Below are positions 33,110 to 36,275 of a stretch of DNA of 36,307 nucleotides, piece after piece (position 1 is the stretch's first letter; every line of letters begins with the position of its first letter). A model generated the notes under the pieces. That model saw only the letters and a list, made by a program, of their open reading frames with translations, was not told the DNA's origin and searched no databases. Source of the stretch: Rickettsiales bacterium (lineage in GTDB: Bacteria; Pseudomonadota; Alphaproteobacteria; Rickettsiales; UBA3002); assembly GCA_044351685.1 (NCBI GenBank), contig JBILFK010000001.1, positions 1 through 36,307 on the forward strand, given 5' to 3'. A program made the position numbers and the translations under genes.

Positions 33110-34051
33110 TTATTTGTAGGAAGTGAGGGCAAATTTCACACGGTCGGCCAGTGTGAAATGCGAAGTGTCGCCAGCGGCATCCACCACATCGGTACGTTCT
33201 TTCAGGCCACAACGATTGGCGATTTGAATGGCAATACCAGGGCGGGCATTGGCTTCAAGCACCATGGGGCCTTTATGCTTATCGAGCACAATATCCACCC
33301 CCACATAGCCAAGGCCAGTGATATCGTAGAATTTCGAGGCCATCTCGAGCAGAAATTCCCAACGCGGAATTTGGCGACCAGCCAGTTTTTTGCGGGTTTC
33401 GGGATGTTCATTGATGAAGCGGTTGCTTTGCACACCATACATGGTCACGCCATCATGCATGCGAATGCCCACACCGATGCCGCCTTTGTGCAGGTTGGCC
33501 TTGCCATCGGATTTGCGGGTGGGCAAGCGCAGCATCGCCATAATTGGAATGCCTTTATACACGATAATGCGAATATCGGGCACGCCCTGATAAGTGATTT
33601 CATTGAAAATCGGATCGAATTGCACGACATATTCGAGAATCACTTTATCCGACGAGCCATTCATCGAATACATGCCACCCAGAATATTGGTGATGTAATA
33701 CTGCATATCGCCGGCGGAAATGATATCGCCGCTGGCCTTCACGAAGCTGCCATCGATGACGTCTTTCACGATGGTAATACCATCGCCGCCGGAACCTCGG
33801 CAGGGTTTAATTACGAAGTCGGTGTGCGGTGTCGCAATTTCTGCCACGCGCGAAGAATCGTTGAAAAACTCGAGCACGCCATAAAGTTCCGGCACCTGAA
33901 TCCCAGCTTCGATGGCCAGTTTTTTGGTGAGCAATTTATCATCCACCAGCGGGTAATTGCGCCTGCGATTCTGCTCGAAAATATAATCACGGTTGCGGGC
34001 GTTGATACCCATGATGCGGTATTTGCCGAGATTAAAAATATCGGTAAGCAT
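33110..34051 (-). CDS. RimK-related ATP-grasp ligase (alpha-L-glutamate ligase-like protein)
   Basis: 313 aa. The N-terminus 'GINARNRDYIFEQNRRRNYPLVDDKLLTKKLAIEAGIQVPELYGV', then 'FVIKPCRGSGGDGI' and 'GYVGVDIVLDKHKGPMVLEANARPG', fit the ATP-grasp family that always accompanies the 7TM/transglutaminase protein. ATGA overlap with the upstream gene. Confidence 0.8.
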   Translation of the reverse strand: MLTDIFNLGKYRIMGINARNRDYIFEQNRRRNYPLVDDKLLTKKLAIEAGIQVPELYGVLEFFNDSSRVAEIATPHTDFVIKPCRGSGGDGITIVKDVIDGSFVKASGDIISAGDMQYYITNILGGMYSMNGSSDKVILEYVVQFDPIFNEITYQGVPDIRIIVYKGIPIMAMLRLPTRKSDGKANLHKGGIGVGIRMHDGVTMYGVQSNRFINEHPETRKKLAGRQIPRWEFLLEMASKFYDITGLGYVGVDIVLDKHKGPMVLEANARPGIAIQIANRCGLKERTDVVDAAGDTSHFTLADRVKFALTSYK

Positions 34052-35667
34052 CAGCCTTGCTGCCCTTCTTTTTTCTCGAGGGCCATCAGGCTTTTTTGCA
34101 GCTGACGGAAGCGAATATATTCGGTGAGCTTATAGTTGTTATAGCGCCCCAGCAGCAGATTTGTGGCCAGCACCACCAGCAATAATTCCGGGAAGGCGAA
34201 AATAAGGTGGTTGAGCGCTTCGCTGCTCATGGCAAAATGCGCAATCACCGCCGCACCCAAGCTTTGCGCGCCGGTTTTCAGCGCCAATTCAGGGCCGTAT
34301 TCTTCCCACATCAGTGTCATGCGCTCGATGGTCATGGTGAGAATCACGATCGGGAACAACGAGATAGAAAGCCCCATGGTGAGACCCATCTGGTTGGTGA
34401 TCATGGCGATGAACGAAAGCAGAATCACCACCACGGTTAGCACCGCGGCAAGCCTCGGCACCAGCAACAGCTTGAGATGGTCGAAGTAATTGCGAATCAT
34501 GAGACCAATCGCCACCACCAGCATAAACAGCACCACCCCGTTCACCACTCCGGTTTCGCGGAACGCGAGCGCAATCAGCACCGGCATGAAGGTGCCGAAG
34601 GTTTTAATGCCAATTACCTGCCGCAAAAACGCCAGCACCAAACCACCCACCGGAATCATCAGCAGCACCTGGAATACAATTTGCGTATCGATCGGCAGAT
34701 TATAGAACGAGAATTTCAGCAGAATATCGGCAAACTGACCGCTTTTCCAGATGGCACGGGTGAGCGCGTTATTGGTGTTTTTGCGTACCGAAATGGTGAT
34801 ATCGGTATTGGCATTGCCTTCCATGGTAATCAGGTTGGCATCACCATACCACCACACGGCGTATTTATCCTTCAGGCCAAAGCCGTAACTTTCCGGGTCT
34901 ACGGCTTGCCATTTGCCGCCAATAAACACTTCCTGCCATTTCACGAACTGGGCTTTGCGTTGATCGGCCGAGAGCTTCAGGCCGTGCGCGGTGCGCACCG
35001 CCACATTTTTGGCCTCAAGCAGCAATGCTGCGATATCCGAGGTGGTCATGTTCACATTCACGGTATCGCGCAGCAGCTGCACGCGGTCATCTTGTGCATC
35101 GCTGGCCAGCTTAAAAATTTCGCGTACGAAGGTGCGGTCGGAGGCAGATTTTTCGCGCGCTTCATCGATCAGCGCATCTACTGCCACATAAATGGGGGCT
35201 TCTTTTTCGCCCTCTTCTACTTTTGGGCGGTTGCCTTTGGCATAGGGCGATTCGGGCAGCGCGGGCGGCGCAATAATCTCGGTCGCCGGAGAATCAAGTT
35301 GGTAAAGTGTGGCGCGGTAAAAAATGGTTTCCTGCGCTTCGATACGGCGCTTCGAGAACACCGCCACGCGGTTCAGGTCGCCATCTTTACCGGCAATTTC
35401 ATAGCCGAACCCACGCGCCACAATATTTTCATCGACCACCGCATAGGGGCTGGTGTTGTGCGGCAATTGCATGGTGAGCAGCAGCGGCTTATCGCCCGGG
35501 CGCCAGGGGTTACGCGATTGCAGGCTTACCCGCGCCTCGAGGTACCAGCTATTATACATTTTGTGCGGGCTAAGCGGGAATTCCAGCACCAAATGTTTAT
35601 ACAGCATCAGCGAAATGCCAATGGTGGCGAATAATCCTGCCAATAAAAACACGCGCAAATTACGCAT
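34051..35667 (-). CDS. Inactive transglutaminase-like domain fused to a 7-TM module
   Basis: 538 aa with an N-terminal TM anchor, a ~300-aa extracytoplasmic domain, and a C-terminal block of about 7 hydrophobic helices ('LLMIPVGGLVLAFLRQVIGIKTFGTFMPVLIALAF...'). The architecture and gene neighbours match the family described by comparative genomics. Confidence 0.75.
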   Translation of the reverse strand: MRNLRVFLLAGLFATIGISLMLYKHLVLEFPLSPHKMYNSWYLEARVSLQSRNPWRPGDKPLLLTMQLPHNTSPYAVVDENIVARGFGYEIAGKDGDLNRVAVFSKRRIEAQETIFYRATLYQLDSPATEIIAPPALPESPYAKGNRPKVEEGEKEAPIYVAVDALIDEAREKSASDRTFVREIFKLASDAQDDRVQLLRDTVNVNMTTSDIAALLLEAKNVAVRTAHGLKLSADQRKAQFVKWQEVFIGGKWQAVDPESYGFGLKDKYAVWWYGDANLITMEGNANTDITISVRKNTNNALTRAIWKSGQFADILLKFSFYNLPIDTQIVFQVLLMIPVGGLVLAFLRQVIGIKTFGTFMPVLIALAFRETGVVNGVVLFMLVVAIGLMIRNYFDHLKLLLVPRLAAVLTVVVILLSFIAMITNQMGLTMGLSISLFPIVILTMTIERMTLMWEEYGPELALKTGAQSLGAAVIAHFAMSSEALNHLIFAFPELLLVVLATNLLLGRYNNYKLTEYIRFRQLQKSLMALEKKEGQQG

Positions 35668-35762
35668 AACACCTTCCTAGTGGCACACTGGCCTTGTTGT
35701 TCTGTTGGTTCGCTCGGGGTAAAGGAAATTTTTCACTGATGCAAGGGCAGTTACATACCCGC

Positions 35763-36275
35763 CTAGCGGCAGGTTGGTCGTGTCAGAAAGGTGCGCGACG
35801 CATCGACCAGCAGCTCGGCGTGCGATAGCATGTTACGACCTACCAGCACCGGATACAGGAAATTGCCGCGGTCAGCGAGGTTCACTTCCTGCATCACTTC
35901 GTGGCCAGCAATGCAAAAGGTCATTTCCACGACAGGGCGGCGAATATAGCCGCCATCTTTCTTTTTAATGCGCACATAGCGCACCACGTGGCGCTCGAAC
36001 ACTTTTTTGCGCGCACCATCATCATCCGTCATGCTGAAAACGGCGGTTTCTCCCGTAAAGCCACGGCGGCGCGGGGCTATTTTTTTAATATCGATAATTT
36101 CGGCATCAATCGACGAGGTGGTCGCCCCAGTATCCATTTTTGCCTTCAGGTGTAAATCGATATCCTTGATGCGCACATTCTCAATCCAGCCCACTTGCTT
36201 TGCCTTTGCTGCCGCAGGCATCGGTGCGCTACACACACATATAAGCGCCATCACAACAAGGCTGTATCGCATCAC
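35763..36275 (-). CDS. Retropepsin-like aspartic peptidase (family historically annotated 'putative ATP-dependent zinc protease', RimB-like)
   Basis: 170 aa with signal peptide 'MMRYSLVVMALICVCSAPMPAAA'. 'GWIENVRIKDIDLHLKAKMDTGATTSSIDA' contains the D-T-G-A aspartic-protease motif in the context typical of this family. It is the first gene of the three-gene module. Confidence 0.75.
   Translation of the reverse strand: MMRYSLVVMALICVCSAPMPAAAKAKQVGWIENVRIKDIDLHLKAKMDTGATTSSIDAEIIDIKKIAPRRRGFTGETAVFSMTDDDGARKKVFERHVVRYVRIKKKDGGYIRRPVVEMTFCIAGHEVMQEVNLADRGNFLYPVLVGRNMLSHAELLVDASRTFLTRPTCR

Follow-up and report, generated by a model that had tools for sequence, protein, structure and literature searches.

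We found that three genes at one end of a 36,307-nucleotide stretch of DNA from a Rickettsiales bacterium almost certainly form an intact rloABC operon, the same system that is known from Pseudomonas aeruginosa. (The stretch, which we call the window, is positions 1 to 36,307 of contig JBILFK010000001.1 from the GenBank assembly GCA_044351685.1; the organism is an uncultured alphaproteobacterium.) The genes encode a retropepsin-like peptidase (RloA), a membrane protein with an inactive transglutaminase-like domain and seven transmembrane (TM) helices (RloB), and an ATP-grasp ligase (RloC). The system is known and named, and the present copy adds one more alphaproteobacterial example. The triad is said to have been first defined by Iyer et al. 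in 2009.

The P. aeruginosa operon (PA14_41690/41710/41730, or PA1768-PA1767-PA1766) was named rloABC by Lormand et al. (mBio 2025; PMC12239564). They reported that the RloA enzymes resemble retropepsins, form dimers, and have a basic channel for the substrate. In vitro, RloA cuts runs of at least 8 glutamates; Asp48 is essential for this activity, and Lys46, Arg114, and Arg137 contribute. A strain with a triple deletion of rloA1-3 does not grow in low-salt medium (hypoosmotic lethality) and also has defects in biofilm formation, ampicillin sensitivity, and cell shape. These defects are suppressed by deleting rloB or rloC. No genome-encoded polyglutamate (polyE) substrate was found in P. aeruginosa. 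In Vibrio cholerae, the rloABC orthologues lie within the VxrAB cell-wall-damage regulon (PMC12239564). In other studies, transposon hits in PA1766-PA1768 suppressed the rugose phenotype of flagellar mutants (PMC7314104), and disruption of an RloB homologue in Shewanella vesiculosa led to hypervesiculation (PMC12096838). Our literature search found no work on RloC's product after the 2025 paper. (The names RloA, RloB, and RloC have also been given to restriction-linked open reading frames (ORFs) and to an anticodon nuclease, which are unrelated to the genes discussed here and collide with them in name only.)

An earlier, sequence-only reading of the window had described the triad as a conserved system whose role was not established experimentally. 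That is outdated for the system as a whole, given the genetics, structures, and enzymology of rloABC (PMC12239564), but it still holds for RloC's product and for RloA's substrate in vivo.

Protein families and active sites

We compared the three proteins to hidden Markov models (HMMs) from Pfam. All four of the families that the sequence-only reading had proposed (Zn_protease, Transglut_i_TM, 7TM_transglut, and ATPgrasp_ST) were confirmed. The E-values range from 3e-26 to 5e-92, which rules out chance matches.

RloA is predicted to be a secreted retropepsin-like aspartic peptidase. It belongs to PF05618 (Zn_protease/RimB-like; E = 3.2e-26), and its sequence matches in the PDB are 9G58 (E = 2e-14), 9G59 (E = 2e-13), and 2PMA (E = 1e-9). 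9G58 and 9G59 are the RloA-family crystal structures that were deposited with the Rlo paper (PMC12239564). These matches, along with a weak match to RimB, bear out the earlier view of the peptidase as a retropepsin-like relative of RimB. As that reading also had it, this is a 170-residue, apparently secreted protein with a DTGA motif, which lies at residues 48–51. In the alignment to the crystallized proteins, the conserved residues are Lys46, the DTGA motif beginning with Asp48, Arg113 (within RPV), and Arg136 (within DR). This numbering is nearly that of Lys46, Arg114, and Arg137 in P. aeruginosa RloA, which coordinate polyE. The mature protein is net basic (27 lysines and arginines versus 19 aspartates and glutamates). 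Retropepsins (clan AA, family A2-like) have one DTG-bearing lobe and work as homodimers; RloA contains one such lobe, of about 145 residues, and its crystallized homologues are dimers.

The N terminus of RloA (MMRYSLVVMALICVCSAPMPAAA, followed by KAK) combines a basic residue and a hydrophobic core with an AxA site (AAA before the lysine); its hydropathy is 1.7. The signal peptide is a heuristic call from composition and hydropathy. The constructs in the crystal structures align with RloA only from residue 28 on.

RloB matches Transglut_i_TM (PF14400; E = 1.2e-30) and 7TM_transglut (PF14402; E = 5e-92). As the sequence-only reading described, it is a 538-residue protein with a large extracytoplasmic domain and a C-terminal block of TM helices: an N-terminal TM helix (residues 4–24) is followed by an extracytoplasmic domain of about 300 residues and by seven helices at residues 326–507. 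An AlphaFold2 model of RloB, built from an alignment of 30 sequences (predicted local distance difference test score, or pLDDT, of 77.9), has a beta-sandwich at residues 37–123, a helical/beta core at residues 158–300, and the TM bundle at residues 326–507. When we compared the periplasmic part of the model to known structures with Foldseek, it resembled 3isr, a transglutaminase-like putative cysteine protease from Cytophaga hutchinsonii (E = 4.5e-9, TMt = 0.56). Both have a beta-sandwich and a papain/transglutaminase-like core. (Another relative that was considered is vasohibin, a peptidase that acts on tubulin tails and also has a transglutaminase-like fold, but the Foldseek matches were not significant, with E = 0.4–0.6 and probabilities of at most 0.25. 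A search of PDB sequences with RloB gave only noise, at E = 0.25.)

Unlike the 3isr-type proteases, RloB is fused to seven TM helices and has no cysteine anywhere in the protein. The periplasmic domains of all 30 homologues that we aligned also lack cysteine. At the position expected for the nucleophile, Ser174 is invariant among the homologues. His228 is a histidine in 21 of the 30 and an asparagine in the other 9, and Asp257 is an aspartate in 26 and an asparagine in 4. The Cys-His-Asp catalytic triad of active transglutaminases and papain-like enzymes is therefore missing from RloB and its 30 homologues, and its relic (Ser, His or Asn, Asp or Asn) varies too much to count as a conserved triad. 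The absence of cysteine and the lack of conservation of the relic justify the label "inactive" for RloB, and its pocket is best regarded as a relic that binds rather than catalyzes.

The 7TM block and the C-terminal tail of RloB contain the invariant motifs RQxxGxKTFGTF, PR, ER, WEE, and FPE. Several of these motifs probably face the cytoplasm, given the N-in topology that we inferred by the positive-inside rule. Foldseek found no significant structural neighbor for the TM bundle in the PDB, either transporter-like or receptor-like, so no analogy to a transporter or a receptor can be drawn for this part of RloB.

In NCBIfam, the best models for the first two proteins are those named for RloA1-3 ("retropepsin-like aspartic peptidase") and RloB. 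RloA scores 109 bits against RloA3 (cut-off 210), 92 bits against RloA2 (cut-off 250), 90 bits against RloA1 (cut-off 280), and 37.3 bits against RimB (cut-off 200), so it is below every equivalog cut-off; the alignments to the RloA models are full length. Similarly, RloB has a full-length alignment to "osmotic stress tolerance membrane protein RloB" that scores 380 bits, with a cut-off of 900. The RloA1-3 and RloB models are narrow equivalog or exception models that were built on Pseudomonas proteins. Judging from these scores, RloA and RloB are family members, not certified equivalogs.

RloC matches ATPgrasp_ST (PF14397; E = 3e-83) and scores 399.6 bits against TIGR02291 ("alpha-L-glutamate ligase-like protein"), which is above the curated cut-off of 314.2. 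This agrees with the earlier description of a 313-residue ATP-grasp ligase. Hydropathy analysis showed no TM or hydrophobic segment in RloC. None of the top 120 homologues of RloC is fused to RloB or RloA; all of them have 299–331 residues. The AlphaFold2 model (pLDDT of 86.2) is most similar to ArgX (Foldseek E = 5.8e-12), RimK (E = 1.5e-11), the cyanophycin synthetase CphA1 (E = 6.7e-11), and LysX. The members of this top group all extend the carboxylate of a peptide or a protein by an amino acid, but they stand out only modestly (TM-score of about 0.5), so the ranking is supportive but not decisive. D-Ala-D-Ala ligases rank about 100-fold behind this group. Although the LysX/ArgX-LysW ligases and the G domain of cyanophycin synthetase are the nearest neighbors of the RloC model (E = 6e-12 to 1e-10), the identity is only 16–21%, the TM-score is about 0.5, and neither a LysW-like carrier nor the M and N domains are present here.

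Could the triad be a system for polyglutamylating ribosomal protein S6, as RimK and RimB are? Both systems combine an ATP-grasp ligase with a retropepsin-like peptidase that cuts polyglutamate, the folds are similar, and catalytic motifs are shared (RloC has the DIR, NLHxGG, and ExN motifs of RimK). RimK is among the nearest structural neighbors of RloC, RimB is a detectable homologue of RloA, and RloA cleaves RpsF-8E in vitro (PMC12239564). But RloC scores just 50.5 bits against the RimK family (TIGR00768; cut-off 143.4), from a local match at the C-terminal ExN region only, and 18.2 bits against the S6-glutamate ligase (PRK10446; cut-off 331); RloA, as mentioned above, is far below the RimB cut-off as well. 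The ligase here is an ATPgrasp_ST/TIGR02291 protein, not a TIGR00768 protein. RimB (NF052261) is cytoplasmic and lacks a signal peptide, whereas the peptidase here is predicted to be exported, and the operon includes a membrane protein as an integral part. In P. aeruginosa, RloC is just 24% identical to RimK, and deleting rimB showed no genetic interaction with the rloA mutants (PMC12239564). We consider the S6 explanation to be effectively refuted already.

Overall, the present triad shares with rloABC of P. aeruginosa the three protein families, the A-B-C order, a predicted signal peptide on the peptidase, the DTG active site, basic residues in the substrate groove, the inactive transglutaminase with 7 TM helices, and a cytoplasmic TIGR02291 ATP-grasp protein. 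It differs in that its host is an alphaproteobacterium, while the paper emphasizes Gammaproteobacteria; in that just one RloA gene is visible in the window, instead of three paralogues; and in that its RloA and RloB are below the Pseudomonas-based cut-offs. A search for anti-phage defence models (PADLOC) gave no match at E ≤ 1e-3 for the three Rlo proteins or their neighbors.

Gene layout and conservation

The ORF check placed all three genes at the coordinates given in the sequence-only reading, which had called them co-directional and left out the strand; it is the minus strand (Table 1). An ATG lies one codon after the GTG of rloA, and in the public annotation of the source contig the protein has 169 amino acids. 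At the junction of rloB and rloC, the coding strand reads GGC TGA TGC: the stop codon TGA (34053-34051) and the start codon ATG (34051-34049) have one base in common. The earlier reading had reported an overlap of stop and start here, and the overlap is real (34053-34049), but it had been read as ATGA instead of TGATG. This overlap implies that rloB and rloC would be translationally coupled. Since the gap between rloA and rloB is just 95 nucleotides and rloB and rloC overlap by 1 nucleotide, all three genes are probably co-transcribed. Our promoter and terminator scan found no terminator-like site on the minus strand in the spacer between rloA and rloB.

The 142-nucleotide spacer 3' of rloC is probably the end of the operon, and read-through into the next gene, for a 116-residue protein, is possible. 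The consensus scan found neither a terminator nor a promoter on the minus strand in this spacer. Across the scanned region (32400-36307), the overall counts of promoter-like and terminator-like sites were not above those in shuffled sequences, so the operon's boundaries remain inferred. The window includes just 32 nucleotides 5' of rloA. The module had been called complete; this is correct for the coding sequences, which are intact, but the promoter region is beyond the window, so the triad is complete in the coding sense only.

Two ORFs run antisense to the operon: 33158-34105 (+), with 315 codons, is antisense to rloC, and 34477-35634 (+), with 385 codons, is antisense to rloB. Their translations are of low complexity and rich in His, Arg, and Gly. 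They are probably shadow ORFs of rloC and rloB and are unlikely to be coding.

We then examined 13 distinct related loci, which are from metagenome-assembled genomes (MAGs) of Alphaproteobacteria and from one Spirulinaceae cyanobacterium. (We refer to individual loci as L001, L004, and so on.) All 13 have the genes in the order A-B-C on one strand, so the triad is conserved as an operon elsewhere, as the sequence-only reading had expected. Among the loci whose gene tables were returned, rloB and rloC overlap by 1 nucleotide in L014 and are separated by 2–7 nucleotides elsewhere. The RloB of the window also occurs, unchanged, on a 53.7-kb metagenome contig from JGI. Seven of the genome loci have RloB proteins that are 66–78% identical to the one in the window; these are alphaproteobacterial MAGs labelled as Rickettsiales, Alphaproteobacteria, or "Azospirillum". 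Across the loci, the identity to the proteins in the window is 49–86% for RloC, 42–78% for RloB, and 43–68% for RloA. RloC is the most conserved of the three in nearly every locus, which fits a fixed chemistry with more freely evolving periplasmic partners. At L007 (7516-7964), the homologue of rloA matches in two pieces that are in different frames (residues 20–90 and 90–169). This apparent frameshift indicates a pseudogene or an assembly error.

The triad has also been documented in Gammaproteobacteria (PMC12239564). Overall, the Rlo system is widespread in Alphaproteobacteria, Gammaproteobacteria, and Cyanobacteria: among the candidates that were scored, we counted more than 5,000 clusters of RloB (5,242 at E ≤ 1e-10) and more than 7,700 clusters of RloC (7,753 at E ≤ 1e-5). 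In P. aeruginosa, rlo has effects on cell shape, biofilm formation, sensitivity to beta-lactams, and tolerance of osmotic stress. The present copy adds little to this: in an uncultured Rickettsiales-like lineage of Alphaproteobacteria, the triad is intact and keeps both the coupling and the conserved residues. It offers no special handle on what RloC makes.

In a few of the distant relatives, other membrane proteins are encoded within a few kilobases of rloABC. MscL is encoded at L014 (6409-6810) and an MscS-type channel at L015 (11749-12612). The proximity of mechanosensitive channels is suggestive given the hypo-osmotic phenotype, but 2 of 13 loci are too few for a linkage. EamA-family transporter genes are found at L010 (11120-12001) and L015 (10414-11610).

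A possible mechanism and its rivals

What might the three proteins do together? As a whole, the account that we favor, by a little, joins the rloABC identity to a mechanism in which a product is made, exported, and trimmed. The mechanism taken by itself is tentative and falls somewhat short of probable. In the cytoplasm, RloC would use ATP to make an alpha-linked, glutamate-rich chain, which might be attached to an acceptor or be free. RloB probably forms a complex with RloC, in which its conserved cytoplasmic face would make the contact, and without RloB the product would not get to the periplasmic side or have an effect there. The relic transglutaminase pocket of RloB would be a peptide-binding module and may hold the product. 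Secreted RloA would then trim the anionic chain. Together, the three proteins would set the level of a polyanionic component of the envelope that affects turgor and the behavior of the cell wall, and an unchecked product would be harmful at low external osmolarity. Two parts of this proposal, the specificity of RloA for polyE and the epistasis, are imported from P. aeruginosa (PMC12239564).

There are precedents for a membrane machine that makes an anionic glutamate polymer of the envelope and has a dedicated hydrolase: the PgsBCA/CapBCA systems for poly-gamma-glutamate. This is a functional analogy only. The families are unrelated (PgsB resembles Mur ligases, not ATP-grasp enzymes), and no homology turned up here; the glutamates are gamma-linked, and Gram-positive bacteria are the hosts.

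Several findings weigh against this account. First, polyglutamate as the product of RloC is inferred only from the specificity of RloA in vitro and from a distant similarity to RimK. Second, Foldseek barely separates RimK and LysX from the D-Ala-D-Ala ligases (E of 1e-11 versus 1e-9, with TM-scores of about 0.5). Third, the 7TM block has no structural neighbor, so a role in export lacks direct support. Fourth, RloC belongs to a family that Pfam calls "sugar-transfer associated", a name that suggests non-protein acceptors for other ligases of the family. Finally, RloA and RloB are below the equivalog cut-offs, so the case for their orthology with the Pseudomonas proteins is built on domain architecture and synteny.

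Another explanation, with which the lack of a transporter-like neighbor for RloB agrees, is that RloB is a 7TM sensor. Its periplasmic domain would bind a ligand, such as a glutamate-rich peptide, and its cytoplasmic face would switch on RloC, whose product would stay in the cytoplasm. RloA would destroy the ligand, and the toxicity of losing rloA would reflect runaway signaling from RloB to RloC. An extracytoplasmic ligand-binding domain with 7 TM helices is typical of bacterial receptors, and the conserved charged motifs in the 7TM block and the C-terminal tail of RloB would fit a sensor. Furthermore, the suppression of the rloA1-3 deletions by deleting rloB or rloC fits signaling as well as it fits export. 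But there is no output or signaling domain, RloB has no receptor-like structural neighbor either, and a source of a periplasmic polyE ligand would still be needed. The tight coupling of the genes and their strict synteny across phyla fit a machine of an enzyme and its partner at least as well. We consider a sensor to be unlikely, but it is the best of the alternatives.

The family of RloC raises a different issue. ATPgrasp_ST is the "sugar-transfer associated ATP-grasp" family, and D-Ala-D-Ala ligases are also strong fold neighbors of RloC. Perhaps the target is a carboxyl group on an envelope precursor, to which RloC would attach one or several amino acids through an amide bond; RloB would flip the precursor or act as its scaffold, and RloA would take the peptide off again. 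Candidates for the acceptor would be the peptidoglycan stem, a periplasmic glucan, a lipid-linked sugar, or an exopolysaccharide. The phenotypes resemble those of cell wall defects (beta-lactam sensitivity, cell shape, and osmotic lysis), and the V. cholerae genes belong to a cell-wall-damage regulon (PMC12239564). On the other hand, the best fold neighbors of RloC act on carboxylates of peptides or proteins. Also, the requirement of RloA for at least 8 consecutive glutamates in vitro implies a long chain and not a decoration with a single residue. And none of the 13 loci has a glycosyltransferase that is linked to the triad. A non-protein acceptor, of whichever of these types, seems to us less likely still than a sensor, and we prefer the export and trimming of a glutamate-rich chain to both.

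Neighbouring genes

Downstream of rloC, on the same strand, are genes for a 116-residue protein (p116) and a 1,368-residue protein (p1368). The sequence-only reading had suggested, as speculation, that p116 or a block of giant orphans might be substrates of the system. Neither p116 nor p1368 has a match in Pfam, NCBIfam, PADLOC, or PHROGs. One member of the supposed orphan block is a giant flagellin, with matches to Flagellin_N and Flagellin_C.

Searching seven related loci with tblastn for p116, p1368, the flagellin, and the adjacent 786-residue protein (p786) gave nothing at 1e-5. On that result the neighbors would not be conserved, but this view was overturned by a survey of ORFs and a re-test with profiles. 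Five of the related loci overall (L004, L005, L006, L007, and L012) have a small protein (126–167 residues) and a giant one (about 1,190–1,360 residues) encoded 3' of rloC in the same direction. These counterparts also have no match in Pfam, NCBIfam, PADLOC, or PHROGs. The giants of the relatives are homologous to each other (E = 1e-82 for L004 with L007 and 7e-14 for L007 with L012). The N-terminal region of p1368 is remotely homologous to them (hhalign E = 1.9e-5, probability 77%), and blastp of p1368 against the 1,360-residue protein of L012 gave 1e-4. Homology of p116 to the small proteins could not be demonstrated (hhalign E = 0.15–0.18); the similarity is limited to a weak D/N-rich loop and a C-terminal Cys-x-Arg.

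The giants (about 1,200–1,370 residues) evolve quickly, belong to no database family, and have a conserved N-terminal module of about 100–250 residues and proline-rich C termini. The small proteins that precede them have 116–167 residues and tails that resemble Cys-x(0-2)-Arg/Lys. (On inspection, the pattern Y..YDT...IA...N......GQ.V.LP in this N-terminal module looks like LysM, but Pfam does not detect LysM there and we make no such claim.)

Are p116 and p1368 modified by RloC and trimmed by RloA? The pair follows rloC in the window as well as in the five loci above, the giants share a conserved N-terminal module, and the system's substrate in vivo is not known. In the strongest form of the idea, the pair would be a lineage-specific client: RloC would add polyglutamate to a protein of the envelope or surface, which RloB would present and RloA would trim; if true, this would be the first natural substrate for an Rlo system. 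However, the pair is confined to loci where the whole region is syntenic (HisD-HisG-AroA-Dcd-MtgA ... rloABC-small-giant ... DUF2748). It is absent from L001, where RloB is 75% identical and an epimerase gene follows rloC. It is also absent from every locus whose RloB is at most 57% identical (L008, L010, L013, L014, and L015), all of which keep the triad. The gene after rloC in these five encodes an Hpt protein, a 511-residue, 297-residue, or 73-residue protein of unknown function, or TldD, with no mutual resemblance. The linkage of the small and giant genes to rloABC is, on this comparison of gene orders, clade-level synteny. Moreover, the neighbors have no acidic runs and no glutamate-rich C termini (p116 and p1368 end in CGCSR and IPGKF), and neither p116 nor p1368 has a recognizable signal peptide. 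The spacer separates the pair from rloC, and P. aeruginosa lacks such neighbors yet shows the phenotypes (PMC12239564). Because the linkage is only clade-level synteny and there are no acidic tails, the idea that p116 or p1368 is a substrate is unsupported. We regard it as very improbable, both for acceptors in general and for a lineage-specific client.

Table 1. Coordinates of rloABC, its parts, and other features. Positions are in the window unless a related locus is named.
Feature	Coordinates	Strand	Description
rloA	36275..35763	minus	170 amino acids from GTG 36275; likely real start is ATG 36272 (169 amino acids)
Predicted RloA signal peptide, residues 1–23	36207..36275	minus	Hydrophobic N-terminal segment; cleavage after AAA
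Catalytic DTGA motif, RloA D48-T-G-A51	36123..36134	minus	Sequence read; aligns with DTGA of 9G58, 9G59, and 2PMA
rloA-rloB spacer	35668..35762	minus	95 nucleotides; strong AGGAAGG Shine-Dalgarno 5 nucleotides 5' of the rloB ATG
rloB	35667..34051	minus	Inner-membrane protein, 538 amino acids
RloB periplasmic domain, about residues 27–320	34708..35589	minus	Beta-sandwich and transglutaminase-like core without catalytic Cys
RloB 7TM block, residues 326–507	34147..34692	minus	From DSSP helices and hydropathy; followed by a basic cytoplasmic C-terminal helix
rloB/rloC stop/start overlap	34049..34053	minus	TGATG, 1 nucleotide; sequence read
rloC	34051..33110	minus	Cytoplasmic ATP-grasp amino-acid ligase, "alpha-L-glutamate ligase-like", 313 amino acids
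Spacer 3' of rloC	32968..33109	minus	142 nucleotides, AT-rich
p116	32617..32967	minus	116-residue orphan, no family match; probably outside the system
p1368	28476..32582	minus	1,368-residue orphan; hydrophobic C-terminal segment, Pro-rich tail; probably outside the system
Permuted two-piece tmRNA	17546-17888	minus	Alphaproteobacteria type; RF01849, 174 bits; beside SspB (16981-17490)
Giant in L004	7798-11391		
Giant in L006	2115-5915		
Giant in L007	11270-14839		
Giant in L012	12152-16234		

The giant flagellin gene (26075-28453, +) is convergent with the gene for p1368, and there are no other flagellar genes near it in the window. It encodes 792 amino acids if translated from a TTG; the public gene call has 776. 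Flagellin_N matches residues 35–165, Flagellin_C matches residues 701–785, and the middle, of about 530 residues, is variable. The adjoining ORF for p786 (23485-25845, +) encodes an N-terminal TM helix. This ORF and two others, 14829-16250 (+) with 473 codons and 18032-20020 (+) with 662 codons, have no match in Pfam, NCBIfam, or PHROGs.

The window also contains ordinary chromosomal genes, including those for TadE, RodA, PBP2, MreC, MreB, ThyX, MsrB, SspB, and DUF2748. The permuted tmRNA (Table 1) establishes that the source organism belongs to the Alphaproteobacteria. The DUF2748 protein (21855-23180, +; E = 2.5e-97) belongs to a family that is known mainly from Rickettsia-type genomes, and it is conserved near the rlo region in L007 and L012 (46–49% identity). 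A rod-shape/elongasome cluster (4528-10005, -) comprises RodA (4528-5652), PBP2 (5649-7445), MreC (7991-8878), and MreB (8959-10005), with a predicted and probable MreD at 7504-8058. On the source contig, outside the window, a gene for an MtgA-like transglycosylase lies two genes upstream of rloA. The elongasome cluster and this transglycosylase imply a normal peptidoglycan wall.

Two overlapping genes, 10062-11195 (-) and 11192-12562 (-), could form a further pair of the amidoligase type: the first matches a glutamine synthetase catalytic domain below the cut-off (22.6 bits, with a threshold of 24), and the second has a weak match to DUF7790. NCBIfam has no match for either. Finally, at 53-1157 (+) and 2970-4394 (+) there are two TadE-like pseudopilin genes along with a protein with a weak VWA domain. 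These genes look like part of a Tad/Flp pilus locus. In the relatives, type IV pilin-like genes (with the N-terminal sequence FSLVELSIVLVILG) are found upstream of rloA.

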